A DNA stretch of 42,950 bases from a virus (IMGVR_UViG_2870479586_000005); one strand, 5' to 3'; positions 22,375 through 38,529 are shown, counted from the first letter of the stretch. Notes: generated by a model from the sequence alone, not told the origin. Numbers and translations: made by a program.

Positions 22375-22967
22375 GATGTGTAATCCAGCAGCTGCGCGGC
22401 GGCATTTTCAGCGGCCTCCTGAGAGGCAAACGTGCGGAACAAAATATAATTCCACAGCACATCTAAAACGGCTGAATACAGTTGACCGAACTCAAGATCG
22501 TCCATCGCAGCAAACGAGATTGAACGAGGTACGCGCATCAAACTGCCGTCTGGCATCTGATGAACGTCATAAAACCCAGCTTCCATAATCGCCCATGCGC
22601 GAAACGCCTCGAACGACTTCACCGCACTGATATTCCCCGCGCGCTTTTCCGACTCATCGAGAAGATACTGATCAGCCAGCTCTGCCATGACATCACCGTG
22701 TCCACCGTAATACGCCAGTAACTTAACGTAGCCATGGACCAGTTCGCGCTCCGCAGGAGAAATAGCCCCTCCGGACGGATGCCAGTAATCAAAGCCCAGG
22801 TTTAGAAGTGAGAAAAATTTACGATGAAACGCGGGATTACGCGCCTGTTTGAAATCTGCATACACAACAGCACCTGGTTTGACTCGTTCAGTCAACCAGC
22901 GTTGCGTGTCTGGTGTCGCGGGTATTAGCGAACCGCCGGATACCCTGATAAATGAATGCTGCGCCAT
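22371..22967 (-). CDS. DUF1367-family phage protein
   Basis: 198-aa ORF, coupled (4-nt overlap) to the YbcO-like gene; family assignment from recall. Confidence 0.5.
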   Translation of the reverse strand: MAQHSFIRVSGGSLIPATPDTQRWLTERVKPGAVVYADFKQARNPAFHRKFFSLLNLGFDYWHPSGGAISPAERELVHGYVKLLAYYGGHGDVMAELADQYLLDESEKRAGNISAVKSFEAFRAWAIMEAGFYDVHQMPDGSLMRVPRSISFAAMDDLEFGQLYSAVLDVLWNYILFRTFASQEAAENAAAQLLDYTS

Positions 22968-23044
22968 GTTTAACTCCAGGTGGCGCGGCAGTGTTCAGAA
23001 AATGGTGCCGGGTGTTCAATCCAGCACCGATATTATACCGTGTT

Positions 23045-23224
23045 TTACGCGTCAGGGGGTGTAATAGTATATCCAGCTATTTCTGCCAACTCGAGAAACG
23101 CCATCAGGCTGGCAATCCGTTCATCATCAGTCAGAACACGCACACCAACGATGTGTCCGTCCTTACGCTTGATAACAGCCCGGCATGTTTCCGGTAGTTC
23201 GCCTATAGATTCTTGAATATTCAT
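23045..23224 (-). CDS. small hypothetical protein (59 aa)
   Basis: ATG at 23224 preceded by an AGGGGG Shine-Dalgarno; below the ORF-track length cut-off. Confidence 0.25.
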   Translation of the reverse strand: MNIQESIGELPETCRAVIKRKDGHIVGVRVLTDDERIASLMAFLELAEIAGYTITPPDA

Positions 23225-23375
23225 GTCTTCCCCCTAACGCCATTGCCTGTGCATTTATACAGTATTTTATGGCATTTGTCATAACGCCAGATACAATGAG
23301 GGAATAATGAACAATTATATTCACGTCGTGAATTTTATTAAACGGTTTTATAGGGGATTAAACCGTTTATGGTCA

Positions 23376-24017
23376 TTATTTATCACTCCTGTAAATTGAA
23401 ATTAACCATTTTCTAATCGTCGACGCTGCAGGTGGGTCAGAGTATTTCGCCACAAAAATACCGGATATGTATTGCACACCACGCGATAATGGCGCTGTCG
23501 GGTTTTCAGTAAAAAAACGATCAGCCAGTTCAATGGCTTCGCTTTTTAATCTGTGCTGTGGCCGTCCTCCGCCCTTAGTGCCAAGGTAACGCGCCAGTTG
23601 TTTGAAACGGTAGGCGATGATTAACGGTCGCATCATCATATTGAAAAAATCTCGGGCATCGTTGTCAGCGCCTTGCGCTATCAACAGTGCAAAAAACAGA
23701 TACGGGATTGTGTACACTTCAGGAGATATACGAACCCGTTCACAAGTTGGTGGAGCCAACTCAATAAGTAAGTCAGCCAGCGGATCCCCCTTTTCTCCAT
23801 GTTTGTAATAGCGATACAGAGGCCCGATATCGAGTTCACTCACGTCAATTTCAGGATGCCCGGCAACGGTTGTACGTATCTCTTCTGCCAGAGCGTCAAA
23901 TATTACCCCGGTCCGCTCAAGATAGAGCCTCCGGGTCGAACCGCGATCATCCAACGCCCGTAACATATCTAACCGGCTTACGAAAGTTTCAGGCCAGTCC
24001 TCATAGAAAGTTTTCAT
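23376..24017 (-). CDS. hypothetical protein (213 aa), accessory island
   Basis: Track ORF 23376-24053; internal ATG at 24017 has a GAGGT Shine-Dalgarno 5 nt upstream, so the upstream extension is probably not translated. Confidence 0.5.
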   Translation of the reverse strand: MKTFYEDWPETFVSRLDMLRALDDRGSTRRLYLERTGVIFDALAEEIRTTVAGHPEIDVSELDIGPLYRYYKHGEKGDPLADLLIELAPPTCERVRISPEVYTIPYLFFALLIAQGADNDARDFFNMMMRPLIIAYRFKQLARYLGTKGGGRPQHRLKSEAIELADRFFTENPTAPLSRGVQYISGIFVAKYSDPPAASTIRKWLISIYRSDK

Positions 24018-24088
24018 AATTACCTCGAATAATAAAAACTGCATTATTTGCACAATTTATTATTCGTTTTCACATCGCAGGGTTCTAT

Positions 24089-24115
24089 AAAAAAGAAAAC
24101 CCGCCGAAGCGGGTT
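24089..24115 (-). terminator. rho-independent terminator
   Basis: Hairpin AACCCGC-CGAA-GCGGGTT followed on the minus strand by TTTCTTTTT, 20 bp after the stop of the 92-aa gene. Confidence 0.55.
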
Positions 24116-24135
24116 AGTTAATAAGTTACACCAGG

Positions 24136-24414
24136 TTATGAGGCCATACCGTAAGCTTTTTTATGCATCCCATGGTCATAGCCCATATTATATGCTTCAA
24201 AAGCATCTTTATGACGGACATGCCCAGCCTGGCTTTCGGGTAAATCACCTAAAACAGAGTCATCAACCGCACGCGGAACGCCGATTAATGCATGCCACAT
24301 ACCTTTATCATAGGCACATCCACAACACTTGTGCCGCCCAACGTTACCCTGATTTGCAGAAAGAACATCAAACATACTGTCGTGACGATGTGACTTTTTA
24401 CAGATGTGTTTCAT
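24136..24414 (-). CDS. hypothetical Cys/His-rich small protein
   Basis: 92-aa ORF (CKKSHRHD...HKCCGCAYDKGMWH...) with its own downstream terminator; weak Shine-Dalgarno. Confidence 0.35.
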   Translation of the reverse strand: MKHICKKSHRHDSMFDVLSANQGNVGRHKCCGCAYDKGMWHALIGVPRAVDDSVLGDLPESQAGHVRHKDAFEAYNMGYDHGMHKKAYGMAS

Positions 24415-24882
24415 TCATTGACCTATATCATTTTCGGTAATGAATGCTTTACACGGGATCCCGGTTGAGGTAATCTCCCAAACCGAGATCTCAACGAAAG
24501 CATTAACCGATGTTTTTGTATGGCCCTGACAGTTGGCGCTGTCAGGGCTTTCCCTTTGATGCGACTCTAAAAACTTCGCAACCTCCAGATCCTATCCAGG
24601 ACCAAGAAAAACTTCAATGAAAAGATCAAGTTAGATCTGTATTTTTTTACAGATGTAATAAATCACACATGTAATAGCCTTCCCTTTCCGTTCTCATCTG
24701 GCCTCTTGTGGCATCCATTTTTTTAAGAAACATATGGACGCCTAAAAAACCACTAATGTCATGATTATCATGTATGTTTTTACTGGAAACATTGAGCCAT
24801 CCACAATGCAGCGTAAAAAGCAAGCAATTCACAAGATTTTAAAGTGATTTATCTGGAAGACTTTACTACTAACAGTTAATAT

Positions 24883-24927
24883 CGTACCAGAAGTGCAGAA
24901 TTTGCACTTTCACAGGAAAGTGGTACG
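24883..24927. promoter_or_regulatory. nested palindrome / candidate operator upstream of the peptidase gene
   Basis: CGTACCA (24883-24889) pairs with TGGTACG (24921-24927); AGTGCA (24892-24897) pairs with TGCACT (24903-24908); lies 55-100 bp upstream of the ATG at 24982. Confidence 0.4.
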
Positions 24928-24981
24928 GAACATGTTGTCTATATTTCGACCAACAATCGTAATGCAGTAACTGGAGGAGCT

Positions 24982-25470
24982 ATGGCTACCAACCCAAGAG
25001 AGCACGCCCGGCGAGTGCTGGACACGTTCTGGTGCGGGCGTGGTTTCCCTGTTGATCCAGCGAAAATTGCTCACGACATGGGATTAGATGTTTTTATTAC
25101 CGATCTTCCTGGGAAAGTTTCTGGCGCACTGATTAAACAAAAAGATCAAGATCCAGCGATCTTTCTAAACAGTGATGACAACAAAGTTCGTCAACGTTTT
25201 TCATGTGGGCATGAGTTGGGGCATTACATCGCCCGGCAAGCATCGCATAGTGATGAATATGAGTACGTTGATTTACGTGGCGAAACCGCAAGCGCCGGAA
25301 CGCATCCTGATGAAATTTTTGCGAACAAGTTCGCAGCAGAACTTCTGATGCCGGTTGATGAGGTCAGAAAACTGCACGCTGACGGCCAACCAAGTTATAT
25401 AATGGCGCATTATTTTGGCGTATCTGACGATGCGATGACTTATCGTTTAAAGAACTTGAGGTTGGGGTAA
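24982..25470 (+). CDS. ImmA/IrrE-family Zn metallopeptidase (HExxH)
   Basis: 162-aa ORF; HELGHY motif within a DUF955/ImmA-like context; GGAGGA Shine-Dalgarno upstream. Confidence 0.75.
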   Translation: MATNPREHARRVLDTFWCGRGFPVDPAKIAHDMGLDVFITDLPGKVSGALIKQKDQDPAIFLNSDDNKVRQRFSCGHELGHYIARQASHSDEYEYVDLRGETASAGTHPDEIFANKFAAELLMPVDEVRKLHADGQPSYIMAHYFGVSDDAMTYRLKNLRLG

Positions 25471-25479
25471 CGCTTTAGA

Positions 25480-26085
25480 ATGCCATCGGATGACGATTTT
25501 AACAGCCGTTTCAAACAGGAAGTTGCACGCCGACTGAAGGATTCCCTCAACCTACACCGTCAGTTAGCAGAAGAGGTTGAGCCGGAGGACGATGAAACTC
25601 CGGTTCAGTCCCCTGATGAAACTTCACCTCTGCAAAAGATTTCGCACGACCCCAAAAAACCATCTGTCCGTATTCACGGAATAGCCAGAAAAAGAGCTGC
25701 CGAAGCTCGCAAAATGGCTGTAGCTGCGTCTAGCAAAAGAACTCCAACTGCTACACCATCTCAACAAGTCACCCGTACTGAGAGTAAAATCTTGACCGAG
25801 TTCACATCTGTGAAACAGGTGAGTTCACTTGATACCGAGCATGAGCGCAAACAACTCAACAACAAAGATTTTGAAGCTGAAATCGCTCTAAAAAAACGCT
25901 ACGGAAAATGGTTCCTGATAATCCTTGCTTGCCAACTTCTGATAATGAATGGGGTATTTATTGCCGACGGCGCAGGTAAGCTGGAATTTGAGGATTTAAC
26001 ACTACAGTTGTACATGGGCGGTACTTTGACAGAGGTATTCGGCCTCGTGCTGGTCGTGACAAAATACCTTTTTAAACGCAAGTAA
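25480..26085 (+). CDS. membrane protein with charged N-terminal region and two C-terminal TM helices
   Basis: 201-aa ORF starting 10 bp after the peptidase stop; C-terminus WFLIILACQLLIMNGVFIA and GGTLTEVFGLVLVVTKYLF are hydrophobic helices. Confidence 0.65.
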   Translation: MPSDDDFNSRFKQEVARRLKDSLNLHRQLAEEVEPEDDETPVQSPDETSPLQKISHDPKKPSVRIHGIARKRAAEARKMAVAASSKRTPTATPSQQVTRTESKILTEFTSVKQVSSLDTEHERKQLNNKDFEAEIALKKRYGKWFLIILACQLLIMNGVFIADGAGKLEFEDLTLQLYMGGTLTEVFGLVLVVTKYLFKRK

Positions 26086-26509
26086 CTCTCTCGGTCCAAC
26101 AGTCTTTCGAAAGCCCTGATCAAAGGGCCTTGATAAATTAGCAGTGCGTTGAAAACAGATAGTTATTCCCATCAGTTCCAACGTAATACACATCAAAAAA
26201 ATCACCATTCTTTTGCTCTACGTCAACACCTACCCTTAAAAAAATAATTCTCCAAGAATGAGAAAGTTATTGTGTGTATTAGATAAGATATGAGCTGACA
26301 CATCTATGGCGTGGAGCCAAACCTAATATGACAGTCCGCTCTGTGCCAAGAGCGAACATTACAAACACACTAAAATTTATGTTTGTACTTCGCTGTAGCC
26401 ACCTAAAAGTATTATTGCGGGTGGTTTCGTGACAATGTTAGATATTCTTCATTTTGAATTGATTACTGAATTAAGATAAAACCACCCGAATTAAAACTAT
26501 CAAAAGTAT

Positions 26510-27391
26510 CTATGGTTGTTCATCACTCTCTTCTGAAAGTATTTGTACTACTTGTCCACACTCTCCACATACTACGTGTAATTGACTATCTTCTTCGGAC
26601 TTGAAAATCTCACTAACTAAGCTATGACAGTTAGGGCATTTTATCTCGTTATCAAAACCTATGAATTTAAGGAATAAGTTTTGAATTAATGAAACTGCAG
26701 TGCAAGTGAGTATAAGGCAAATTTTAGCGTCAGGAATGTTTTTGTTTGAAGAGTGCACCGTCTCTGCGGAAAAATCCCATGCAGACTCAATCGTTGAGCG
26801 GCAATATTTTCTGAGACTTGAGTTTCGTTTTCCTGCGGCATACAACCCAATAATAATTCGGCAAATATTTTTAAAGTCAGCTGCTTTAATATTTTCTTTT
26901 TTTAATATATCCTCATGAGTTTTATAAAGGTGAGCAGCAAGCTCAACCATGCTCTCTCTACAAGTTAGTCCAATACTTTGAATATCTTCAGGGGCCTTAA
27001 TATTATTCAGAGCAACAGCAGAAGCATTTAACCTCCGGCTAATAGAACGAAGCATATCTATATCTAAAGGTAACTCATCAATAACATGTTTGAAATCATT
27101 GCTATGTCTTGCTTGTAGTCTTTGAGTTATACCCAAATGAAAAGAATATGCTTCATCAGCAGAAAAGAAAAACTCATTTTGAGTGTATAAGTTTAAAGGA
27201 ACGTTTTCACCTTCAGCAACCCACCAGTTACCATCATTTTTTGTTCTGACGTTCCAAATGTTAACCTCAAAACCTAAATCATTAAATGTTTGCTCAACTT
27301 GCATGTTTTTTATGTTTTCTATATTTTGAGTTTTTAAATATTCAGTAATTCTTTTCTCAGCATCGATTCTGTATTCTGGTGTCATGTGCAA
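26510..27391 (-). CDS. hypothetical protein with C-terminal zinc ribbon
   Basis: 293-aa ORF in AT-rich DNA; C-terminal CPNC...CGEC four-Cys motif. Confidence 0.55.
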   Translation of the reverse strand: MHMTPEYRIDAEKRITEYLKTQNIENIKNMQVEQTFNDLGFEVNIWNVRTKNDGNWWVAEGENVPLNLYTQNEFFFSADEAYSFHLGITQRLQARHSNDFKHVIDELPLDIDMLRSISRRLNASAVALNNIKAPEDIQSIGLTCRESMVELAAHLYKTHEDILKKENIKAADFKNICRIIIGLYAAGKRNSSLRKYCRSTIESAWDFSAETVHSSNKNIPDAKICLILTCTAVSLIQNLFLKFIGFDNEIKCPNCHSLVSEIFKSEEDSQLHVVCGECGQVVQILSEESDEQP

Positions 27392-27449
27392 TCCCTTTTA
27401 ATAAGATACTAAAAGTAAAAGCGCATTATAGCATAACACATACAATGCG

Positions 27450-27695
27450 TTAATGCGTATGCTTGTGCCCTGTAATGATTTCAAAATGAACGTTTGCATA
27501 CAACTGTTTTTTGATCTGGTTGTATTGCAACAGAATGATTTCCACTGCTCGTTCATAGCTGATCTTCAGTTTAGTTAGCATGTCCGTTCTGTGCCTTTTA
27601 AGTTCATTCTTGCCATACTTAGCCGACTTGAATGCTATTTCTTCTATCACTTTTTTAGTTGGCATATTGGGGCTAGAGTTCCGTTCCTCGCTCAC
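27450..27695 (-). CDS. small hypothetical protein
   Basis: 81-aa ORF (GTG start in track) just upstream of the 293-aa gene; start uncertain. Confidence 0.3.
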   Translation of the reverse strand: MSEERNSSPNMPTKKVIEEIAFKSAKYGKNELKRHRTDMLTKLKISYERAVEIILLQYNQIKKQLYANVHFEIITGHKHTH

Positions 27696-27862
27696 GGCAG
27701 ACCTTAAGCTCAGTTAGTTCGTCTGCTCCGTGCCAGAGCGAACGTTGTAAACACAACATTGCTTTAGTCGACAGGGGCCAATAGGCTACTGCGTACCCTG
27801 TGCTAGAGTAAGTATCAAATAGGTATTATCCATGTATATGACTGCTCGATGATGCATCATAA

Positions 27863-28942
27863 TCACAAACGTTCATGATCAAGACTGTTTTCATCATTAT
27901 TTAAGTCATTAAGCATTTGAAGTGCGTCACGAGTACGTTCATAATTACTTTCAGGGTATAATCTAAACTTCATATTTTCCAAATTAATTAATTTTCTTTT
28001 TAATTTGAAGGAATCGTTAGAAAGTGACATTTCGTAAAAATCAATATCCCCCTGTCTGGATTGTAATGCACTCATAACGGAAAACTTAGCAGATTCTTTG
28101 AACCTCAAACCGAATGTAACATCGCTTAACCGAAATGGTGAGTTCTGTAAACCTTGATTATTAATAACTCGATATTCATTTTCATATTTCCAAGAAGGAG
28201 CTTTGCTGAGAAGAATGACCCTATCAATCTCTTTTTTGGCAGTATTCTTTATATTATCATTGCTGCCAAATAACATATCATGAACTTGTTGAGTTCTAAT
28301 AAATCGATTCCCTTTGTAATCAACTGGATGGATATCTAAAGAGTCATTTTCAGAAGTATCATATCCAATACAAAATCCCTTATGTTGATCAGCATAATGC
28401 GACCACATTAAGGGGCAGTTAAATTTTCTTGCTAATGAAAGAACACCAACCTCATAATTTTTTAGCAAGTATCTTTTAATATAAAAACTGGCGCTAGCAT
28501 AAAAATCATCACCATAATTATCAACATCCCACGAAATATTATCAATTAATTTTCGAGCTTCGCTTTCACCTAGCATTTCAATTTTCTCTAATGTCCTTAG
28601 ACCTTTATATTTAATTTTTTTTGCTGCTTTCGCTAGTTCCTTTTGATGATTTTCTTTTACTAATTTATGAAGGATAGAGTTCAATTCATTGACATTATTG
28701 ATGTCGTTTAACACGGAAGGATTACAATCCAAAGGGTCATTGAATGTTGTTGGATCAGCAAAATACAGTCTATCGCTTACAAGCAAGTCAAGACTATCAA
28801 CACTAAAGCTTTTATATTTATATAATCGAGAGGGAATATTCTGTATCATCACTTTTATCTCATAAATTTTTTTGATATTATCTGCCAATTCTAGCCCCAT
28901 GGGCAATAGCAAAATCGAAAAATACTCTCTACGTAAGGGCAA
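27863..28942 (-). CDS. DUF2971-like protein (candidate defence-associated)
   Basis: 359-aa ORF in AT-rich DNA; RLYKYKSF...LYFADPTTFNDPLDC...PLMWSHYADQHKGFCIGYD...KYENEYRV motifs recalled as DUF2971 hallmarks; start may be at an internal Met. Confidence 0.5.
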   Translation of the reverse strand: MPLRREYFSILLLPMGLELADNIKKIYEIKVMIQNIPSRLYKYKSFSVDSLDLLVSDRLYFADPTTFNDPLDCNPSVLNDINNVNELNSILHKLVKENHQKELAKAAKKIKYKGLRTLEKIEMLGESEARKLIDNISWDVDNYGDDFYASASFYIKRYLLKNYEVGVLSLARKFNCPLMWSHYADQHKGFCIGYDTSENDSLDIHPVDYKGNRFIRTQQVHDMLFGSNDNIKNTAKKEIDRVILLSKAPSWKYENEYRVINNQGLQNSPFRLSDVTFGLRFKESAKFSVMSALQSRQGDIDFYEMSLSNDSFKLKRKLINLENMKFRLYPESNYERTRDALQMLNDLNNDENSLDHERL

Positions 28943-29514
28943 GCCCTTTCCCCATGGATATTCATCAAATTAAGCGGGTGTACTTAGGTCATATTGACCT
29001 GTTCCTAATTGACGATACACCTCGATGTTCATTAAGCCACTTAGAGTGCTGAGACAGATATGAACTGCAGCTTTTCGCTCACTGCTGCCCTTCAGTAAGC
29101 GAAAAAATGCCTACTCGGTGCCATATACAGTCATGGTTATTAACTACAGGGAATAATTCCACACTGAAATTAAATGTCTGCCTTTTACAGTAGAAATAGT
29201 TTCTCCAGGACACTATCCATTGCCGGGCACAATCACTCGGGGTATAACGATATAAAATATGTTCATGATAGTGCAGGTTCGTATATTAAGTTCAGCAGCG
29301 AAAACATGCCTTACAGGTTTCCGGTTTTGGGAGCGTCGTTACAGGATCCTGCGCATACCGTTCCCATCTGTTGAATTAAAGGTTTCACAGCCTTTGCCGA
29401 TATCGCCTTTTACCTTGCCTGTGATGCGTTCAGTGCTCAGCGTTGTTTACTGTAGCTCTCGGAACTGATTACAGACCGCGTCTTAAAAACCAATCCTTAC
29501 TCTAAAGGGAATTC

Positions 29515-30438
29515 ATGAGATTAAAATACTCAGTACTCTTACTCGCCATTGCCCTTACAGGCTGTGATAACAAAAAAGATGAGATCGGTTGTTCTTCGGA
29601 AATGACCCAATCAGCTCTCATGGATTTATTAAAAAAATCTGCTTATGAAGGACTCTCTGAACAGGTCGATAAATACCCTGATGTCACTAATCAGACCAAA
29701 CGAAGCACACTGGACAAGATCAAACTAGCCGTCTCTGAAATCTCCACAACATCAAGTGACACGGGCAGCACAATGAAAACTTGTGAAGGGACCGTGACGA
29801 TGACTCTACCTGCGAACGAGTACGTCCAGCTTTCAGATGCTTACAGAAAGAATTTTAATCGTAATCTCGACAAGCAAATGGAAAGCCTGTTTTTGGAGAA
29901 CAACGCAAACGCCTTTTCCAAACGTATCACCTACACCGTGCAGGCGACCGACGATCAGAAAAACGTTTTTGTAAAAACCTCTTCTGATAATCCGATATCA
30001 GTGGGCGCCGCTTTACTGACATCACTTTCTATTATCAACCCGATCGTTGAGCAGCAGAAAATCCAGCAGGCTAAGGATGCCCAACAGAGCCAAATTGAAG
30101 CGGAACAACAGGTGCAACTCAGGGCGCAGGAACAGGCTAAGTATGAGGCGGAGAAGCAAATAGAGAGACAGGCACAACTTCAGCCACAAAAAGCTGACAG
30201 CCTTGATCAGTCCCGAATGGCATTTGCGAATGCCGACTCTGATTTGAGTACCGTCTGGAGCAAGTTAACCCCGGCGAAGAAAAAAGATTTGCTGCCTTCT
30301 CAGCGTCAGTGGATCAAAACTAAGGATGCTATGTGCGGTAAAGTTTCAATGCAGGGAACAGATGCTGAAGTCAAGAAAATGCTCGACTGCCAGACGCAAA
30401 TGACCCTTTCAAGAATCGCTTTCCTCAGAAACCAATAA
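29515..30438 (+). CDS. lipoprotein with C-terminal LprI/DUF1311-like domain
   Basis: 307-aa ORF; signal peptide plus lipobox (LLLAIALTGC); Gln-rich coiled region; C-terminal QRQWIKTKDAMCG...KMLDCQT...RIAFL resembles lysozyme-inhibitor LprI-type domains. Confidence 0.65.
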   Translation: MRLKYSVLLLAIALTGCDNKKDEIGCSSEMTQSALMDLLKKSAYEGLSEQVDKYPDVTNQTKRSTLDKIKLAVSEISTTSSDTGSTMKTCEGTVTMTLPANEYVQLSDAYRKNFNRNLDKQMESLFLENNANAFSKRITYTVQATDDQKNVFVKTSSDNPISVGAALLTSLSIINPIVEQQKIQQAKDAQQSQIEAEQQVQLRAQEQAKYEAEKQIERQAQLQPQKADSLDQSRMAFANADSDLSTVWSKLTPAKKKDLLPSQRQWIKTKDAMCGKVSMQGTDAEVKKMLDCQTQMTLSRIAFLRNQ

Positions 30439-30458
30439 CTGAAGTTTCCTTCAAGCTG

Positions 30459-30492
30459 GCGCCAGGTGTTAACCTGGTGCCAGCTTAGTCAT
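30459..30492. other. strong stem-loop downstream of the lipoprotein gene
   Basis: AGCTGGCGCCAGG-tgttaa-CCTGGTGCCAGCT, 13-bp arms with one mismatch; not followed by a clear U-tract. Confidence 0.5.
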
Positions 30493-30515
30493 CAAGTGCA
30501 TATTTAACTGTTTTA

Positions 30516-30588
30516 TATGGGCGGTACTTTGACAGAGGTATTCGGTCTCGTGCTGGTCGTGGTCAAATACCTTTTTAAACGCAAATAG
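30516..30588 (+). repeat. orphan direct repeat duplicating the 3' end of the membrane-protein gene (26011-26085)
   Basis: About 73 bp near-identical to 26011-26085, including the stop region, but with no gene body upstream. Confidence 0.8.
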
Positions 30589-30612
30589 AGTATTTCCACC
30601 CCAAACAACCTG

Positions 30613-31401
30613 TCAAAATGCTGAATCAGCAACAGATACAGCCGACTTTTTCCCCATTACCATCAATTTATCCAGTGTCATACTTCGCAGATTGTCGCTG
30701 TGGATCACCAGATACCCTGCCCGCTCAGCGATCTCTTTGAAAGCGTCAAAGGTCATCAGATGTTCGCCTTTGGCAACATGGCGCATCCTTGTCACTTTTC
30801 CATTTTTGATAGTGGTGATAAAAGAAAAATCCGGAATGGTTGGCTGATTTTCATCGAGTAGCAGGCAGTGGATGTATTCAATCGCCTCTAACATTTGCGT
30901 CTGTGACAGTTGTTCTATGTGAGAGACGGCGAAGCGTTGATGAATCATGGTGTAGGCATCGGGATACATCATGCCTTTCTTACCGACCAGCATATTAACG
31001 GCATCACGTAAGGGAGTACGGTCATCGGTAGTTGTACTCCGCCTCTCTGGGCGCTGGCTAAAATAACAATCTTCAAGCTTTTCGAAAACTTCCCAAGCCT
31101 GTTCTGTTTCCAGCATTTTGGCATGGCGAGCTGCGCCGCGTTCTGTCCAGAGAATGAGGGATCGGGTATGTTTAGCAACTGACTGACTATCTGTCAGTCT
31201 GTTTTTGAAGTCGCGTAATTCATTACCTTCCAGCTTAAAAAAATGCTTTCCTACGACAAATCTGGCGATGTTGCGCTTGAAGTTTTGCTGGATACCATTT
31301 ACTTCCGTGCCATACAAACTGGCAAGCAATTCAGTAGTGATGACGGGAAGTTGGTTATGATGTAGCGGAGAAAGGGATTCCGCAGATATTTGGATTGTCA
31401 T
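30613..31401 (-). CDS. phage antirepressor (AntA/ORF6N-type N-terminus)
   Basis: Track ORF 30613-31449; ATG at 31401 has a GAGG Shine-Dalgarno; antirepressor-like character judged from recall. Confidence 0.6.
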   Translation of the reverse strand: MTIQISAESLSPLHHNQLPVITTELLASLYGTEVNGIQQNFKRNIARFVVGKHFFKLEGNELRDFKNRLTDSQSVAKHTRSLILWTERGAARHAKMLETEQAWEVFEKLEDCYFSQRPERRSTTTDDRTPLRDAVNMLVGKKGMMYPDAYTMIHQRFAVSHIEQLSQTQMLEAIEYIHCLLLDENQPTIPDFSFITTIKNGKVTRMRHVAKGEHLMTFDAFKEIAERAGYLVIHSDNLRSMTLDKLMVMGKKSAVSVADSAF

Positions 31402-31431
31402 CGCAGTGGCCTCACTTAGTGTTTTTTTCAT

Positions 31432-31462
31432 CACCACCAGCGACGCCAATCATCTGGTGGTG
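31432..31462. promoter_or_regulatory. perfect 9-bp inverted repeat (candidate operator of the antirepressor gene)
   Basis: CACCACCAG (31432-31440), 13-bp spacer, CTGGTGGTG (31454-31462), immediately upstream of the antirepressor start codons. Confidence 0.45.
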
Positions 31463-31673
31463 AACTGTGCAGGGTTGGCGTAACCGGCTAAGTGAACCCG
31501 GCGCTTCCGCAGAAGCCCCCACACAGCCCACCATAATGCGAATGTGGCCGTGCCTAACACATAAAAAAACCGCTAACGCGGCTATGCGTCACTTAGATAT
31601 CCGGGACGCCAATCCCGGCAACCGATTTTGCGGCTGCGCGGAAACTATAGCCCCGGGCTTTTTCTAAGTCAAT

Positions 31674-31895
31674 TCAATCAACTTCAAACCTCCGGTGTTC
31701 ACATTCCATACACTCAACGGGAACATCATCGCGATGCAAGTCCACATATCCGACCCGCTTATACAACTCAATAATGTCCGGTAACGTGACCAGATGTTTT
31801 TCCGGTTCCAACACCTCAGCCCTGGTTACTTTGTAATCTGAAATATAGAGCACTATCCGCCCGTTCCGTGGTAACTCCAGTTTATCGCCAAACAT
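31674..31895 (-). CDS. hypothetical protein
   Basis: 73-aa ORF in minus-strand early region. Confidence 0.3.
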   Translation of the reverse strand: MFGDKLELPRNGRIVLYISDYKVTRAEVLEPEKHLVTLPDIIELYKRVGYVDLHRDDVPVECMECEHRRFEVD

Positions 31896-32082
31896 GTCCT
31901 TTCCCTCCGGGAAACCAATGATATTGACGATATTACACCCACAACGATTCGTTTTACGTCACTCCGCAATCACCATACATACGTACCAATCCGTACATTC
32001 CCACCACAAAAATGGCATTCGGCGGGCACTGGTAATGGATTTTTAACGCGTGCTATTGCCTTGCGACGTATTTTCAACTCAC

Positions 32083-32307
32083 TCATACAGCCTCCCTGCT
32101 CTCAAATGGGCGAATATTGGTTGGTTCTCCACACGGAATAGCCCAACCCAGCCAGGTAAATATTTTCAGGTCACACATCGCGTCATACCGTTCGCCAGGA
32201 TTCACATCCACCATGCTGCAGGCAATTTCATATTGTTCACCATTATCAGTCAGTGCGATCTGGTCATTAATAAACCGGGGCACAAATGCCAGAAAAAGTT
32301 CTTTCAT
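32083..32307 (-). CDS. hypothetical protein
   Basis: 74-aa ORF, coupled to the upstream gene. Confidence 0.3.
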   Translation of the reverse strand: MKELFLAFVPRFINDQIALTDNGEQYEIACSMVDVNPGERYDAMCDLKIFTWLGWAIPCGEPTNIRPFESREAV

Positions 32308-32614
32308 GAAATCCTCCGCTCAAAATAAACATACTGATTCACCGCACCGATCGACATTTCGAGTTTTTCCGCGATATCCTGGCGATTAATACCCGACTGA
32401 TGTAATTCCCTTGCCAGCTCGATATCCTCCTGGCGGTATTTCACTGACTGGTGATAATTACCCGCAGATACATACAGATTTTCAACTCGCGCGCTTTTGT
32501 GCGTACCGCAGCACCGGTTCTTCCAATAAGCTGCCCTATACGTTCAACTGTCATGCTGCCCGCACATTGTTTGATGATTACGACTTCCGCACGCACCCAC
32601 CGTTTGTATTTCAT
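32304..32614 (-). pseudogene. HTH-containing small protein gene, apparently frameshifted
   Basis: ATG at 32614 opens a 57-codon frame (MKYKRWVRAEVVIIK...MTVERIGQLIGRTGAAVRTKAREL); a second frame continues to 32304 (...DIELARELHQSGINRQDIAEKLEMSIGAVNQYV); both halves look protein-like. Confidence 0.3.
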
Positions 32615-32847
32615 TGCTCCATCCCCCCTCTCCAGTAGTTCAGACGCTCTCTGAAAAATTCCCGGTACGTATCCGGCGTCATTCCGATTTGCTCAATCAC
32701 GCTTCCCCTCGGAATACGTTTCTCAAAGAGTTGGCGGATCAGCGTCGCCGCTCGCATGTCGTAGTGCTCTTTAAGCAGGTATTCCTGAGGCCATTTGGCG
32801 CGGTTGTGTGGTAAGCCGGGCGGCAGGTAATCTGATTGCCCTGCCAT
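32611..32847 (-). CDS. hypothetical protein
   Basis: 78-aa ORF with ATGA overlap to the downstream gene. Confidence 0.35.
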   Translation of the reverse strand: MAGQSDYLPPGLPHNRAKWPQEYLLKEHYDMRAATLIRQLFEKRIPRGSVIEQIGMTPDTYREFFRERLNYWRGGMEQ

Positions 32848-32848
32848 A

Positions 32849-33259
32849 TCACGTCCCTTTCTTTGCTATCGGAGTGATGGAACTCAGCAGCAGGCGACAG
32901 CGACCGGGCGCGCCAATGCGCTGTCCGGTTATCTTGTCGTAAGTTTCATGCGGTGAGGCACACCAGGTTGTCGCTGTTTCGTGGAGTTTCACTTGCCGCT
33001 CACCATTTCTGCGAATCGCGATCCCGATGTGCGTTTTACCCTTACATTTCACTGCTGGCGCTGCGGCTACGGATGCCTGACGGGCAGGCTGAGCTGGTGT
33101 TGAAAAATTGCCTGCTTTGGGTCTTGGTACAAAAACCGCACGAGTGCGCGCACGTGGCCCGGCGTTCATATTCCACAAAATGACGTCGAGATAGTTTTTA
33201 CCGTCGTCTATGTGTCCTTTGTCCGACGGGTACTCTAATTTGCCTGAAATGGTGGTCAT
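32849..33259 (-). CDS. hypothetical protein
   Basis: 136-aa ORF directly downstream of the helicase gene. Confidence 0.35.
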   Translation of the reverse strand: MTTISGKLEYPSDKGHIDDGKNYLDVILWNMNAGPRARTRAVFVPRPKAGNFSTPAQPARQASVAAAPAVKCKGKTHIGIAIRRNGERQVKLHETATTWCASPHETYDKITGQRIGAPGRCRLLLSSITPIAKKGT

Positions 33260-33297
33260 TGGTCTTTCCTCGGTTATTTCACGCTGGTCATGCGTGG

Positions 33298-34689
33298 TTA
33301 AAATGGGTCCGTATTAAAGTTTTTGTTTGAATACCGTTTTTCACGTTTTCTCGGTTGCTCTGCCTCCTTCTGGATGCGTAATTTTTCGCGTGCTACGTGT
33401 TGATCAACTGGCAGGAAATGCCCATTCCGGAATTCCTGATAAATAATTTCACCTGCCCCGCCAGAACGGTTTTTACCGATAATCACCTCGGCGATACCCT
33501 TTGCAGGTGAATCAGGTGTGTAAACTTCATCGCGGTACAAAAACAAAATGCTGTCAGCGTCCTGCTCAACACTGCCGGAATCGCGCAGGTCCGACATCAC
33601 CGGGCGACGCTGGCCAGCAGGTCGAGAATCCACCTGGCGGGAAAGCTGGCTAAGAGCAAAAACAGGGGTATGCAGACGCATGGCCATAGTCTTCATGTTG
33701 CGGGAGATATGCCCGACAGCGAGATCGTGGCGCTCGGCCTTCGGTTTTTTGATCAGGCCCATGTAATCAACACCAATCAACTTCAGGTGCGGATAACGGC
33801 GTTTATGAGTCTCTGCAATGGCGCGGATCTGCTCAATCGTCAAATCAGTGGCATCAACAATCCAGATATCGCGATCCTGCATGATTGCAAGCGCGGCGGT
33901 TAATCTGGTCAAATCCTCATCGTCCATTTCTTTTGGATTACGCAGACGCGACGTGGACATATTCCCAGCCCCGGCAACGGTACGTTCAACAATCTGCTGA
34001 GCGCCCATTTCCATGCTGAAAAACAGTGCGCCGCCGCCATCTGCGGTAACGCCATCGATAATCTTCAGGGTAAATTCCGTTTTCCCCATGCCTGGACGAC
34101 CGGCAACCACAACAAGGTCGGTCATGTTGATACCGCCCAGGGCGACATCCAGATCCTCGACTCCGGTTTTCAGCATCATTTCCTGCGCGTCGCCAGACAT
34201 CCGTTTATCAACGGTGTCAATGTAGAGCGGTAACAGCTCTTTGATGTGTACCGGCTGGACTGTGCCGGTAGCGGCGCTCATATCCAGCACCTGAGCAACA
34301 TGAGATTCAATAACCTCATCACGCTGACTCTGGTTTACAGCGTTACGGATACCATCCGCGCCAGATTGCAACAATGCCGCCATTTTGCGGCTCCGCCATG
34401 CCCGCACCATTTTCCCGGCATAGCCTTTCAGATTCGGTACCGTTGCCGGGATCCGGGATATTTGAGACAGATCCGCAAGGCTGGAACCGCCCAGCGCTTC
34501 GCTGATAAACAACATGTCGATCATGCCGTTCGCCAGTGCCTGCTTTTTGATTTCGCTGAAAGCGCGACGGTGAAACACGATGCTGAAGGCTTCCTCCGGA
34601 GTAGTGGCAATCACATCAAACGCGTCAGGCGTCGCGCCACCGTTAATCAGACCAGCGAGAACGATCGCTTCCAGTTCTTCTGGATTCAT
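33298..34689 (-). CDS. replicative DNA helicase (DnaB-like)
   Basis: 463-aa ORF; Walker A GRPGMGKT, Walker B-like IWIVD context, DnaB-type C-terminal motifs; follows the O-like gene. Confidence 0.85.
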   Translation of the reverse strand: MNPEELEAIVLAGLINGGATPDAFDVIATTPEEAFSIVFHRRAFSEIKKQALANGMIDMLFISEALGGSSLADLSQISRIPATVPNLKGYAGKMVRAWRSRKMAALLQSGADGIRNAVNQSQRDEVIESHVAQVLDMSAATGTVQPVHIKELLPLYIDTVDKRMSGDAQEMMLKTGVEDLDVALGGINMTDLVVVAGRPGMGKTEFTLKIIDGVTADGGGALFFSMEMGAQQIVERTVAGAGNMSTSRLRNPKEMDDEDLTRLTAALAIMQDRDIWIVDATDLTIEQIRAIAETHKRRYPHLKLIGVDYMGLIKKPKAERHDLAVGHISRNMKTMAMRLHTPVFALSQLSRQVDSRPAGQRRPVMSDLRDSGSVEQDADSILFLYRDEVYTPDSPAKGIAEVIIGKNRSGGAGEIIYQEFRNGHFLPVDQHVAREKLRIQKEAEQPRKREKRYSNKNFNTDPF

Positions 34690-35786
34690 AATGCCCCTTC
34701 CCTGGTTTTACGCAGTGTTTCTGGCTTCATCAGGTAATCAAACCCTGCCCGCCAGCCGGTGCGATATTCGCCGCCGAAATAGAAGTCTGGGGCGTTATCG
34801 CGGAATTTTTCGAAGTAGCCGATAAATGCGCCAAGAGTTTGCGTGCGCATATGTGCCAGCAGGCGCAGGATTGCCCGACGGCGGTCAGTATCAATTTCAG
34901 CTATAGGTAGCAGGTCGCCCAGAATCTCGTTGTAGCCCTTCACAACTTCAGCAGGGTCAACGGCAGCCTCAGCAGTGGCCCACGTCTCAGCGTCAGCCAG
35001 GTATCCGTCAAACCGGTTTACGCGGCAAATGTTCGCAGGTTTCGGAACGCTTCCGCTACGACGGCGCCATGTCGCAATAACCCAACGAATTACTAACTGA
35101 ATCTCAGCCACGCTGTAACCAGCGCGGGTGGTGGTGGCAGTTAGCAGCATGACAAACGGTTTAACGTCGCGGCAGCGGGTACCGACTTTCTCGTTGTAGT
35201 AGTTCAGAGCTTTTTGAGCGTCAGCGAGAATGATTTCCTCGCCCTCCCCCTTTTGGGGGTAAGGGGGATCTTTTATCTCTGTAGTACTCTCTGTTGTATT
35301 CTCTGTAGGAGATTGGGTCATTTTGACCTTAGCGCATGGGTCAACTTGACCTGATGCTTGGGTCACATTGACCTCTTCGATTGGGTCAACTTGACCTAAT
35401 CGATTGGCCACAGGGAATGTTGTCTCTTCAATCTTACATAACTGGGCATAATTGATTGAATACCACTTGGTTTTATCCCAGGCATCACTGTTAAAGTTCC
35501 CAGTAAGCAACACATTCAATTTTTCCAGATTGGCCAACACGCGTTTTATTGTCGACTCGCTCCAGAACGGGAATTGTTCTTGCCAGTCGGTCACACTGTT
35601 GTACACCCAGTGGCGATTTTCGAAGAAATTTTGAGACGAATTCAGCCAGTAGTGGATTTGCTGTAGAACGATGGCTTCATTCAACCCTATAGTGCATGCC
35701 AACGTGGGCAGGACCTGAAGGGGGTTTTCGTTAATCAGCAAACGACTCATACTCAGATCTCCAGAGCTTCGGCTATCTGACGACAA
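34686..35786 (-). CDS. replication initiation protein (lambda O-like) containing the origin iterons
   Basis: 366-aa ORF; four iterons lie inside the coding sequence (each translated as the GQVDP repeat), as in lambda O/ori; coupled to the helicase gene. Confidence 0.6.
   Translation of the reverse strand: MSSDSRSSGDLSMSRLLINENPLQVLPTLACTIGLNEAIVLQQIHYWLNSSQNFFENRHWVYNSVTDWQEQFPFWSESTIKRVLANLEKLNVLLTGNFNSDAWDKTKWYSINYAQLCKIEETTFPVANRLGQVDPIEEVNVTQASGQVDPCAKVKMTQSPTENTTESTTEIKDPPYPQKGEGEEIILADAQKALNYYNEKVGTRCRDVKPFVMLLTATTTRAGYSVAEIQLVIRWVIATWRRRSGSVPKPANICRVNRFDGYLADAETWATAEAAVDPAEVVKGYNEILGDLLPIAEIDTDRRRAILRLLAHMRTQTLGAFIGYFEKFRDNAPDFYFGGEYRTGWRAGFDYLMKPETLRKTREGAL
35331..35418. repeat. origin iterons (4 copies of an 18-19-bp palindromic unit)
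   Basis: TTGGGTCAACTTGACCT-like units, each an inverted repeat GGGTCA-N2-4-TGACC; adjacent 3x TCTCTGT(A/T)G direct repeat at 35276-35311. Confidence 0.7.
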
Positions 35787-35977
35787 CCGGCTTCATAGTC
35801 CGCATTGCTCAGCCCTTTGTCGCGCAACTCGACCTTCCTGGATTCATACTGCTCCCACACCGAAAGCGCGGCAGCCATACGCCCATCAAAAATAGGTTGG
35901 ATCTCTGCAACATGTGCCGGGCGCCCATTCAGGTGCCAGCCGTTACGCCAGGTAATGCGGTCAATATGTCTTAACAT
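35753..35977 (-). CDS. hypothetical protein
   Basis: 74-aa ORF between the YdaT-like and O-like genes. Confidence 0.3.
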   Translation of the reverse strand: MLRHIDRITWRNGWHLNGRPAHVAEIQPIFDGRMAAALSVWEQYESRKVELRDKGLSNADYEAGCRQIAEALEI

Positions 35978-36016
35978 CGGTCTTTCCTCGGTATAAGTTA
36001 AACGCTGGTCAGGCGC

Positions 36017-36493
36017 TCATGCATGGTGGCCTTGCGCAGTGCTTATCACTGCTCCTCGCGTCGCTACCAGCGCCGCTATTGCTTCGTCAATTTCCTGAAT
36101 AGTTAACTCTGGCGCGAAGTGGAGATGTACAGCGTTAATCGCTTCCACCCCTTCTTTTGCCGCCAGCGTTGCCAGCAAAACGGGATCGCCCGGCGACTCC
36201 AGACGCGCCCGCCGTTCTGCGGGTAGCACTGCTTTCATCACACTGGCCAGCACCTGAGTTTTTCGGCGCGCCGCCGTTGTCTCGCCACGTAACCAGCGAA
36301 AGATTTTCTGCCGGTTGTTGTTGATGGCTCTCCAGTCCACGTTGCCGTCCGTGTCCTCAAATTCATGTAGTCTCAACTCATCATTGCGTCCCTGACTGAA
36401 CCAGGCCCGGCAGATTTCAATCGTGACGAGTTCCTGCCCTGCCCTTGCCGCCCAGGTCAAAATCTCTTTTTGTAATTCCTCTTGGTTTTCCAT
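36017..36493 (-). CDS. YdaT-like regulator (CII-analogue position)
   Basis: 158-aa ORF; NNNRQKIFRWLRGETTAARRKTQVL recalls Rac YdaT (WLKGET region); second gene of the cro-side operon. Confidence 0.55.
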   Translation of the reverse strand: MENQEELQKEILTWAARAGQELVTIEICRAWFSQGRNDELRLHEFEDTDGNVDWRAINNNRQKIFRWLRGETTAARRKTQVLASVMKAVLPAERRARLESPGDPVLLATLAAKEGVEAINAVHLHFAPELTIQEIDEAIAALVATRGAVISTAQGHHA

Positions 36494-36552
36494 AGCGTCT
36501 CCTGTCGCTAAAAATTGATTACGCTTAATCAGATGTAATAAGCCGCCTTTTG

Positions 36553-36750
36553 CTAAGCTTTTTCATGTTTTGGAACATCGTAAAAAGTCGGGTCATATTT
36601 CAGTGCTCCATTAGTGATATGGTCGAGTCGAGCTGCTCGCTTTTCAGGAACTGTTGCCCCCCAACGAGTAACCGCCACTTGTGATATACCCAGCACCTTG
36701 GCTGTGGCTGTCTTTGAACCAAAAAAACTAATAACCGTCTCTGTTTTCAT
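36553..36750 (-). CDS. Cro/YdaS-like HTH regulator
   Basis: 65-aa ORF with an HTH (TATAKVLGISQVAVTRW); divergent from the repressor gene. Confidence 0.65.
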   Translation of the reverse strand: MKTETVISFFGSKTATAKVLGISQVAVTRWGATVPEKRAARLDHITNGALKYDPTFYDVPKHEKA

Positions 36751-36818
36751 AATTCCTCCGCGTAACTTTTGTTAGCAACATAAATACTAACGAAAGTTAT
36801 GTCAAGTTAACTTATATT
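36751..36818. promoter_or_regulatory. divergent promoter/operator region of the immunity switch
   Basis: 68-bp AT-rich spacer between divergent cro-like and repressor genes. Confidence 0.4.
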
Positions 36819-37232: not shown

Positions 37233-37235
37233 AAT

Positions 37236-37270
37236 AAAGGCAATGTTTTCAATGCATTGCCTTTATTTTT
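37236..37270 (+). terminator. rho-independent terminator after the repressor gene
   Basis: AAAGGCAATG-9 nt loop-CATTGCCTTT followed by ATTTTT, starting 4 nt after the stop. Confidence 0.65.
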
Positions 37271-38499: not shown

Positions 38500-38529
38500 A
38501 GACCACTGACCTGTAATGAGGAAAGACCA

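Follow-up and report, generated by a model that had tools for sequence, protein, structure and literature searches.

A duplicated gene end borders a turnover-prone accessory slot in an E. coli lambdoid prophage

Why does the end of a gene recur, without the rest of that gene, several kilobases downstream of itself in a prophage? The window, the whole stretch of viral DNA that was analysed (IMGVR_UViG_2870479586_000005, 42,950 nucleotides), contains one direct-repeat family for the tail of the gene, here called gene X. A repeat search of the window placed the copies at 26004-26084 and 30507-30587; they are 81 nt long, 90% identical, in the same frame and spaced 4503 nt apart. The 45-nt repeat core occurs twice at no more than 1 mismatch against 0.00 expected from 100 dinucleotide shuffles, and low complexity was ruled out. 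The first-pass annotation had described this recurrence of a gene tail lacking a gene body over slightly shorter intervals (26011-26085 and 30516-30588), and alignment of the copies confirms it, the similarity being neither short nor simple sequence. Its label of membrane protein is reasonable, as a single hydrophobic helix stands out in the gene X product (residues ~144-165). The bracketed DNA is indeed AT-rich (GC 0.32-0.39 at 26200-29000 vs 0.45-0.55 in the flanks) and holds four open reading frames, of 293, 81 (a weak call), 359 and 307 aa. We favour, with a probability of about 0.8, a reading in which copy 1 is gene X's own intact 3' end and copy 2 the orphan remnant of another allele, the pair bracketing an accessory and anti-phage slot prone to turnover, with a three-step history.

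Table 1. Features of the repeat-bracketed interval and its flanks, in window coordinates
Feature	Coordinates	Strand	Basis or remark
ImmA/IrrE (Peptidase_M78) metalloprotease gene	24982..25470	+	Pfam PF06114 E 7.7e-18; PADLOC capP 2.4e-25
Gene X, 201 aa	25480..26085	+	PHROG 5346
Repeat copy 1, intact gene X 3' end, final 27 codons	26004..26084	+	
29-nt block common to both copies	26014..26042	+	GPEC172 deletion crossover interval
Spacer 3' of gene X	26086..26357	.	Common to ST131-type prophage; a mosaic boundary recurs at its hairpin-containing end
~36-nt element copy A, 3' of 293-aa gene	26335..26369	-	
293-aa cargo gene	26510..27391	-	Weak C-terminal zinc ribbon
Small cargo ORF, 81 aa	27450..27695	-	Called with 71 aa in CP027104.1
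~36-nt element copy B, 3' of DUF2971 gene	27720..27755	-	
359-aa DUF2971 / PADLOC PDC-S31 candidate single-gene anti-phage protein	27863..28942	-	
Conserved DNA upstream of LprI, right edge of variable segment	29075..29514	+	Homology to related prophages resumes
LprI-family (DUF1311) lipoprotein gene, 307 aa	29515..30438	+	Pfam PF07007 3e-7; PHROG 5094
Strong 15-bp hairpin right after LprI	30453..30486	+	Directly upstream of illegitimate joint with copy 2
Repeat copy 2, orphan gene X allele remnant (pseudogene fragment)	30507..30587	+	
ORF6N-domain antirepressor gene	30613..31449	-	Pfam PF10543 9e-22; PHROG anti-repressor 2.5e-163
C4 antisense RNA, isrK and a1b1 target elements upstream of antirepressor gene	31453..31650	-	P1 immI-like control

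Gene X sits in a conserved left flank. The ImmA/IrrE gene ends 9 nt upstream of it, and the two are paired in all relatives that carry gene X. The N-terminal half of the gene X product is hypervariable; its hydrophobic C-terminal tail, nearly invariant across Enterobacterales, is the repeat itself. The conserved right flank is the ORF6N antirepressor gene, which is convergent with gene X and whose upstream control elements match Rfam families RF01695, RF01394 and RF03163 at 74.5, 80.4 and 52.9 bits, all exceeding the gathering scores. These matches to C4, isrK and a1b1, upstream of ORF6N, were the sole Rfam matches, and no tRNAs were found; a tRNA or other known RNA as insertion target was rejected. 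In distant relatives (L005-L007, L020 and L021) gene X is present as one full-length copy, and in L005-L007 its 3' end leads directly into a terminator-like hairpin. Alleles from other genera keep the tail peptide with many synonymous positions changed, so that the protein and not the DNA is conserved there, and none of them has the tail duplicated. A degenerate-codon pattern search for the tail matched 13 viral contigs and 3 species genomes, and none of these matches was a two-copy locus outside one E. coli prophage lineage. Among 50,697 records of sequenced phage isolates, gene X and LprI gave zero tblastn matches, and a DNA search of such isolates matched only a fragment of ImmA.

The interval is a hypervariable accessory/anti-phage slot of an E. 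coli lambdoid prophage; it belongs to the nin-like region and lies between ImmA-gene X and the c4/isrK-controlled ORF6N antirepressor. Six relatives (L001, L002, L004, L010, L011 and L013) have the same fixed flanks, ImmA-gene X on one side and ORF6N with replication genes on the other, and at least 6 different cargos were found between these flanks. These include the window's PDC-S31 gene and, in relatives, PD-T4-3 (L003 and L013, E 5.7e-138 and 1.7e-137), GIY-YIG/IS1, SMEK/Aga-like and methyltransferase genes, and a 232-aa gene. LprI is a semi-constant passenger of the slot: it is present in L001, L003, L004, L008-L011, L014, L015 and L019, truncated in L013 and absent from L002 and L018. 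In close relatives only the segment from 26108 or 26358 to 29074 or 29113 varies, left-hand homology ending at 26107 or 26357 and right-hand homology resuming at 29075-29114. Other relatives have their joints elsewhere: L013 inside LprI, L018 right at the end of copy 2 and L003 upstream of ImmA. None of the relatives' cargo boundaries, the one at 30576 included, falls at an inner edge of the repeat.

These comparisons separate two parts of the first-pass annotation. That the bracketed DNA is foreign-looking cargo is supported. That it is a single 4.4-kb cassette moving as one unit does not hold, since close relatives exchange an inner segment and leave LprI and copy 2 mostly constant. The proposed exchange by recombination at the tail stands in part: all four pairings of the variable patch upstream of the tail with the DNA downstream exist, so crossovers occurred in or beside the tail, but the swapped DNA is not delimited by the repeat. 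Stimulation of recombination at the repeat by Chi was rejected, as the window has no more than 2 Chi sites, with 1.0 expected, and neither of them lies close to the repeat.

Copy 2 spans just the final 27 codons, keeps its reading frame (MGGTLTEVFGLVLVVVKYLFKRK and then the stop codon) and has no gene body, because an in-frame TAA and unrelated DNA precede the frame. Its upstream junction (...GTCATCAAGTRCATA...) is the same, save a few point differences, in all carriers examined (the window, L001, L003, L004, L008-L011 and L013-L015). The duplication therefore arose once, and the tail is not a reusable insertion site. The 5' end is the most degraded part: in the window and in ST131 types the 5' codons have decayed to a stop. 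A 1-nt deletion has frameshifted copy 2 in L003. In L018 and L002 the copy is missing or merged, and their annotated prophage genes look intact; it is dispensable. Copy 2 is, we conclude, what is left, as a pseudogene fragment, of a second gene X allele. Of the 7 codons changed relative to copy 1 in the L003 remnant, the least decayed one, 6 are synonymous or preserve the stop (P = 0.0012 if substitutions were random), a pattern expected of alleles that diverged while functional, rather than of neutral decay of a duplicate. The remnant-specific synonymous changes are TTT and AAG CGC AAA TAG. Some changes in copy 2 that are specific to a lineage are synonymous as well, and gene conversion from copy 1, instead of a history as separate alleles, could account for these.

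One of 485 E. coli genomes, GPEC172 (H41/L002), has an unoccupied site in which the antirepressor gene comes straight after gene X, as the first-pass annotation had anticipated for a related genome. It matches a synthetic empty site at 1467/1467 nt in a single piece, and its tail is a hybrid with a copy 1-like 5' end and a copy 2-like 3' end. All 8 mismatches to the occupied prophage of SK1144 lie within the repeat; over 46.6 kb of prophage and chromosome the two genomes differ by ~7 other SNPs, and their integration site is identical. The empty site is thus not an ancestral, never-occupied state. It is a recent deletion of 3,423 bp between the two copies. The background is near-clonal and of ST131 type, and the crossover fell within the 29-nt block that is identical between the copies (26014-26042 and 30517-30545). 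The evidence for this deletion is a single assembly, the CM-series whole-genome-shotgun chromosome of GPEC172.

The history that we propose would begin with an illegitimate joint, formed once, between a segment ending at the LprI terminator hairpin and the middle of a resident gene X. The last ~80 nt of the resident gene would have been left as a scar beside ORF6N, and a complete incoming allele of gene X would have taken over on the left. Since then, cargo between gene X and LprI has turned over repeatedly through recombination, homologous or homeologous, within the conserved flanks, of which the near-invariant tail of gene X is a part, with new illegitimate joints occasionally adding to the exchange. 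Lastly, the two tail copies can recombine homologously, through RecA or a phage recombinase, which deletes all the DNA between them and rebuilds an intact hybrid gene X. GPEC172 is a natural example that shows this last step directly. The second step is documented by comparison of the relatives. The founding joint is a reconstruction, not an observed event, and we found no phage with the ancestral arrangement, in which the second allele of gene X would lead directly into ORF6N. A Campbell-type single crossover with a circular fragment carrying a copy of the tail would give the same structure. That the duplicated tail is a product of recombination, as the earlier interpretation had it, is supported. 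Red and Rad52-like recombinases build lambdoid mosaics between diverged or short homologies, and RecA does so less efficiently (Martinsohn et al. 2008, PMC2327257; De Paepe et al. 2014, PMC3945230).

Could the tail instead be an att-like or cassette recombination site, and the 4.4-kb block a discrete mobile cassette of integron-like or Campbell type? This is the best placed of the alternatives and still improbable. Foreign AT-rich DNA bracketed by direct repeats and a precise empty site with a hybrid repeat speak for it, and a second, nested module (26370-27755) is also flanked by a short imperfect repeat, which is single-copy in the relative L023. However, scanning of the ORFs of roughly 80 aa or more at 24-32 kb revealed no domain of an integrase, transposase or resolvase, and the sole integrase (41904-42950) is the prophage's own. 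The variable cargo boundaries, the single junction shared by every copy 2, the 90% identity of the copies and the conservation of a never-duplicated tail as protein in other genera all argue against a site of this kind, and homologous recombination within 29 identical nt fully accounts for the lone excision-like event.

Very unlikely, and ranked next, is duplication in situ, in which an insertion into gene X copied a target of ~81 bp (as a long target-site duplication, or by repair or replication slippage) and copy 2 then decayed. The layout of full gene, insert and tail is as expected, and copy 2 is most degraded at its 5' end. Target-site duplications in known transposition are 2-14 bp long, and 81 bp is far beyond this range; there are no terminal inverted repeats at the inner edges of the repeat, and the nearly all synonymous pattern of the L003 remnant points to alleles that diverged while functional. 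Insertion of a transposon or IS was rejected on the absence of a transposase and of inner-edge inverted repeats, together with an 81-bp duplication at 90% identity.

A more speculative reading, which we regard as a long shot, takes the near-invariant gene X tail and the small hairpin-containing elements that end the inner modules as dedicated recombination anchors, with repeat-bracketed defence modules, two nested examples of which are seen here, being looped out and taken up as circles by RecE/Gp157-type recombination functions of the phage itself. If true, it would imply an integrase-free cassette exchange system common to lambdoid and P2-like hotspots. Copy A of the ~36-nt element coincides with the boundaries of homology to L001 (26357) and L023 (26368), and no further copies of the element were found in other loci at up to 7 substitutions.

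Least probable of all is that copy 2 was kept as functional, either as a 23-aa hydrophobic micro-protein or as a terminator shielding the convergent antirepressor gene against transcription running on from LprI: most carriers have an unbroken ORF with an ATG, and the + strand can fold a hairpin followed by U5, but the micro-ORF is rejected by the L003 frameshift, sequence inspection finds no Shine-Dalgarno sequence before the ATG, L018 and L002 do without the copy, and the terminator is rejected since its hairpin energies resemble those of shuffles (10/200 and 33/200 fold equally well), the hairpin is lost in L003, and distant relatives lack it and place a separate terminator past the stop codon.

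The reading of an intact gene end and an allele remnant around a turnover-prone slot places this locus in a known kind of feature, a mosaic joint combined with a prophage hotspot, within ordinary phage mosaicism; neither the slot nor the repeat reveals a new mechanism. The novel joints of lambdoid mosaics (PMC2327257, PMC3945230), ascribed to illegitimate recombination and subsequent selection and to homeologous recombination by Red/Rad52-like recombinases, which belong to the same type of phage (lambdoid temperate phages of E. coli), likewise have a truncated gene fragment at a module boundary, traces of homologous exchange in conserved flanks and short identical stretches as crossover points. 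Here, in contrast, the remnant is in direct orientation 4.4 kb from an intact paralogous tail, so the scar also serves as a substrate for deletion, of which one natural product is documented. The P2 old/tin and P4 defence hotspots (Rousset et al. 2022, PMC9122126) share a fixed position between conserved phage genes and highly variable, AT-rich content with known or candidate defence genes (here PD-T4-3 and PDC-S31/DUF2971). They differ in that the present slot is lambdoid, lies between the replication genes and Q rather than adjacent to cos, and is flanked by ImmA-gene X and the ORF6N antirepressor, with cargo in the window that is linked to defence by homology only. As in the morons of lambda-type phages, the cargo genes are low in GC, each with its own hairpin-ended module, and the DUF2971 and 293-aa genes occur independently in other phages; unlike morons, several are stacked in one slot flanked by a duplicated gene end. 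Integron cassettes and attC sites resemble the locus in layout only (stacked single-gene modules, imperfect palindromic elements, direct repeats at the borders), whereas here there is no integron integrase, the boundaries are non-uniform and the elements, by inspection, misfit the RYYYAAC/GTTRRRY cores.

The locus thus offers a case, at nucleotide resolution, of a prophage accessory/defence slot being built and lost, through what would be one old illegitimate joint, repeated homologous exchange via a conserved gene end, and the natural deletion of 3.4 kb. It also identifies a lambdoid-prophage hotspot, occupied by PD-T4-3 in some strains and by uncharacterised genes in other strains, that is worth mining for new anti-phage genes, the candidates here being the 293-aa, 81-aa and DUF2971 genes. 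The window's cargo set (the DUF2971/PDC-S31 candidate and two other genes) was found in no other record examined, and none of 5,426 complete E. coli genomes has its inner cargo. When the 293-aa, 81-aa, gene X and LprI proteins were searched by sequence against NCBIfam and PDB, nothing useful came up. An exact-protein look-up did not find the 293-aa ORF on record, because the deposited gene call begins 2 codons later; a 90% relative of this gene stands alone in another viral contig (L033).

The DUF2971 assignment of the 359-aa protein comes from Pfam PF11185 (E 9e-11, 43.4 bits vs a gathering cut-off of 22) and from PDC-S31 (PDLC04990; 171 bits, E 1e-50, with 255/259 profile positions covered), and the protein has no sequence match in PDB. 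The Aristaios system of Lactococcus plasmids is a DUF2971 single-protein abortive-infection system, for which an ADP-ribosyltransferase-like fold and abortive-infection activity have been reported (PMC11381338). The window's protein likewise has DUF2971 and is the product of one gene that a mobile element carries, a likeness drawn by the shared domain, and host and element differ. An 84% relative of the DUF2971 gene lies in a P2-like defence hotspot, beside a Gabija-like pair.

The window is a lambdoid prophage read on the minus strand. Integrase, Gp157, a RecE-like 628-aa protein, the cI/cro/YdaT region, a DnaB-type helicase, small genes and ORF6N lead up to the slot, which is the DNA between the ImmA-gene X pair and the ORF6N antirepressor gene; gene X and ImmA (opposite strand), DUF1367, DUF1364, Q, lysis genes, terminase, portal and capsid come after it. 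This gene order places the slot in a nin-like region, from the replication genes to Q. A repeat search across 24-33 kb returned a single strong direct-repeat family, consisting of two copies of 81 nt that are 90% identical and lie 4,503 nt apart. The 45-nt core of this repeat occurs exactly twice at no more than 1 mismatch, with 0.00 occurrences expected from dinucleotide shuffles. Copy 1 is the end of gene X, and copy 2 stays in frame with it (MGGTLTEVFGLVLVVVKYLFKRK, then the stop); it has no gene body because an in-frame TAA and unrelated DNA precede it. The first-pass annotation had claimed a duplicated gene tail enclosing an AT-rich interval with four genes, and both are real: the DNA between the copies has a GC content of 0.32-0.39 (26.2-29.0 kb) compared to ~0.45-0.55 in the flanks, and contains four ORFs.

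Features of the slot and its surroundings in the window
Feature	Position	Strand	Remarks
ImmA/IrrE-gene X pair (left flank)	24982-26085		ImmA/IrrE metalloprotease gene (PF06114; capP-like in PADLOC), then gene X 9 nt on
CRISPR-array match inside ImmA gene	25188-25222		35 nt at 100%
Gene X	25480-26085	+	201 aa
Repeat copy 1	26004-26084		final 27 codons of gene X
Repeat copy 2	30507-30587		orphan tail
29-nt identical block	26014-26042 / 30517-30545		within the repeat
~36-nt imperfect direct repeat	26335-26369 and 27720-27755	-	~80% identical
293-aa gene	26510-27391	-
81-aa gene	27450-27695	-
DUF2971 gene	27863-28942	-	359 aa
CRISPR-array match near LprI start	29507-29550		44-45 nt at 93%
LprI	29515-30438	+	DUF1311 lipoprotein gene
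ORF6N antirepressor gene (right flank)	30613-31449	-	convergent; PHROG anti-repressor 2.5e-163
C4 antisense RNA (RF01695), isrK (RF01394), c4 a1b1 target (RF03163)	31453-31650	-	above Rfam gathering scores
628-aa protein	38859-41311		weak RecE (exodeoxyribonuclease VIII)-like stretch, E 3.5e-12, far under family cut-off

Gene X has family members in prophages of Escherichia, Klebsiella, Salmonella, Enterobacter, Cronobacter, Kosakonia, Leclercia, Serratia and Plesiomonas. Its N-terminal half is hypervariable in both sequence and length, and its C-terminal ...LTLQLYMGGTLTEVFGLVLVVTKYLFKRK is nearly invariant across the family; the repeat is therefore the gene's most conserved patch. Distant relatives keep the tail peptide, with many synonymous changes in the DNA, and in L005-L007, which are loci of this kind, gene X is single-copy with a terminator hairpin directly 3'. 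The variable half is charged, whereas the invariant C-terminus is hydrophobic. The pairing of ImmA/IrrE with gene X, at short spacing, is conserved among Enterobacterales prophages (the window, L005-L007, L020 and L021), and the protease matches PADLOC capP (2.4e-25) with no helix-turn-helix partner gene adjoining. The pair could be a module of its own, a membrane effector or sensor under the control of the protease.

A degenerate-codon search found tail loci in 13 viral contigs and 3 species-representative genomes, and all two-copy loci and orphan copies fell within one E. coli prophage lineage. Every orphan copy shares one upstream junction, lying after the LprI hairpin (...GTCATCAAGTRCATA...), so the duplication arose once. 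This bears out the recombination scar that had been predicted, with copy 2 as an orphan gene X tail at a single shared junction. The first codons of copy 2 are degraded to a stop in the window and ST131 types. The least decayed remnant is that of CFSAN061769 (L003), which differs from copy 1 in 7 codons; 6 of these 7 changes are synonymous or stop-preserving, a bias with P = 0.0012 under random substitution. This suggests that two alleles diverged while both were functional, rather than neutral decay of an in-situ duplicate, and copy 2 is probably the decaying remnant of a second gene X allele. Gene conversion from copy 1 is a possible contributor to the synonymous pattern. The same pattern, together with the repeat length and the absence of terminal inverted repeats, disfavors a long target-site duplication as the source of the two copies. 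A functional copy 2, acting as a micro-protein or terminator, is likewise disfavored: a 1-nt deletion frameshifts its mini-ORF in L003, its hairpin energies are non-significant, and it is lost in L002 and L018. At the L003 locus (NZ_CP042969.1 1915351-1930297), ImmA and gene X are absent and LprI, the frameshifted orphan tail and ORF6N are still there; the decaying remnant can therefore outlive its parent gene.

Next to copy 1, the 120 nt just 5' of the tail occur in two sharply distinct versions (17 mismatches per 60 nt), and the DNA from 22 nt past the gene X stop likewise has two versions, unrelated to each other. Each of the four possible pairings is present (window and L001; L004 and L012; L017; L019), and the tail between the variable sides is virtually identical in all of them; crossovers have thus occurred in or beside the tail among full-length alleles. 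In cargo exchange the gene X tail serves as the left arm of homology, as published work on how Red/Rad52-like recombinases act at short or diverged homologies would lead one to expect (PMC2327257, PMC3945230).

We also searched with an artificial empty site in which gene X leads directly into the sequence that follows copy 2. It had matches in 485 E. coli genomes, and only GPEC172 (L002; GCF_054903355.1) matched in a single piece (1467/1467 nt); the empty site predicted in a related genome thus exists. The lone tail of GPEC172 resembles copy 1 at the 5' end and copy 2, down to an ST131-specific G, at the 3' end. Compared to the occupied prophage of SK1144, there are 8 mismatches, all inside the repeat, and only ~7 other SNPs across the 46.6 kb of chromosome and prophage that the two share; both have the same integration site (tRNA-Gly/Cys/Leu adjoining pgsA) and an identical FliC accession. 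The hybrid tail and the near-identity to SK1144 indicate that GPEC172 is an ST131-type lysogen with a very recent 3,423-bp loss. Judged from these alignments, its empty site is derived and not ancestral, and the deletion crossover would have taken place within the 29-nt identical block.

The same flanks hold different cargo in different genomes: one 232-aa gene in the ST131-type prophage (L001; at least 400 genomes), a GIY-YIG nuclease and IS1 in Z0117EC0036 (L004), membrane proteins and PD-T4-3 in L013, where LprI is mostly replaced, PD-T4-3, an HNH protein and others in CFSAN061769, SMEK/Aga-like and methyltransferase genes in L017 and ECO20 (L018), and none in GPEC172. ECO20 is without LprI, and its homology begins only at ~30576 of the window. 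PD-T4-3, a validated defense gene (GIY-YIG; PADLOC E ~1e-137), lies at 2743-3549 of L003 and 5402-6229 of L013. The window differs from its closest relatives in the inner segment alone; homology on the left reaches 26107 in the L004 type or 26357 in the ST131 type, and on the right it restarts at 29075-29114, ~400 nt upstream of LprI. Positions 29114-39448 are 99.9% identical to the Z0117EC0036 prophage and 22386-26107 only 97.2%, and the window is itself a mosaic, with the slot between these two parts. The bracketed DNA is a hypervariable accessory/defense slot, not a single cassette. A site-specific or integron-like cassette is disfavored, as no recombinase lies within the interval, cargo boundaries do not fall at the repeat, there is one junction type only, and other genera lack DNA-level conservation of the tail site. 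The earlier proposal of a cassette inserted or exchanged at the tail therefore stands in part: crossovers at the tail and a tail-by-tail deletion are found, but the interval is not a cassette that acts as one unit, nor is the tail a site for repeated insertion.

We infer that an illegitimate joint would first have linked the LprI terminator region to the interior of a resident gene X, leaving the tail as a scar, and that on the left side the gene would have been replaced by an incoming complete gene X allele. Comparison among genomes shows that the cargo has turned over by homologous exchange in the conserved flanks, with new illegitimate joints now and then. Finally, the natural example shows that a homologous tail-by-tail crossover deletes the whole slot and restores gene X as an intact hybrid; candidate recombinases are RecA and the prophage's RecE-like/Gp157 module. 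Known phenomena, here well documented, account for the feature: it is a lambdoid mosaic joint and a prophage defense hotspot; literature searches found no description of this locus. In practice it is chiefly of use as a slot to mine for new anti-phage genes.

The window's own inner segment, with three ORFs (359-aa DUF2971, 293-aa and 81-aa), was found in none of the 5,426 complete E. coli genomes searched. The DUF2971 protein matches the PADLOC candidate family PDC-S31 (1e-50), and the exact protein is on record in CP027104.1 only. For the DUF2971 protein Aristaios of Lactococcus, abortive infection has been shown by experiment (PMC11381338). The DUF2971 and 293-aa genes travel separately elsewhere. 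A relative of the former (84%) stands alone in a P2-like prophage (L023 6001-10577), with gpA on one side and a Gabija-like OLD-ATPase/UvrD-helicase pair adjoining the portal gene on the other; the gene shares ~87% DNA identity with that of the window, its downstream region included. A relative of the latter (90%) stands alone in another contig (L033). The gpA-to-portal site of P2-like prophages is the classical P2 hotspot (PMC9122126), and the DUF2971 relative in L023 indicates gene flow between lambdoid and P2-type hotspots.

Nested in the segment is a second direct repeat, a ~36-nt element containing the hairpin GCTCT-TGGCAC-AGAGC. The 293-aa and DUF2971 genes each have a copy on their 3' side, and between the two copies is thus a 293-aa plus 81-aa module. 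L023 has a single hybrid element (7186-7216), and its DNA skips from ~27725 to ~26368 of the window. The element coincides with the homology boundary to the ST131 prophage (26357), and the other loci gave no additional copies.

The C4, isrK and a1b1 elements immediately precede the ORF6N antirepressor gene, an arrangement like c4-ant of P1 immI, here in a lambdoid prophage, and like the IsrK-like control region of Gifsy-1. The GPEC172 counterpart of the 628-aa RecE-like protein has 738 aa and is annotated as an exonuclease family protein; a Gp157-family gene comes after the 628-aa gene, and the two may form a recombination module belonging to the prophage. Short stretches near the LprI start and inside the ImmA gene match annotated CRISPR arrays in several E. 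coli genomes, and these matches may be spacers against this prophage family.
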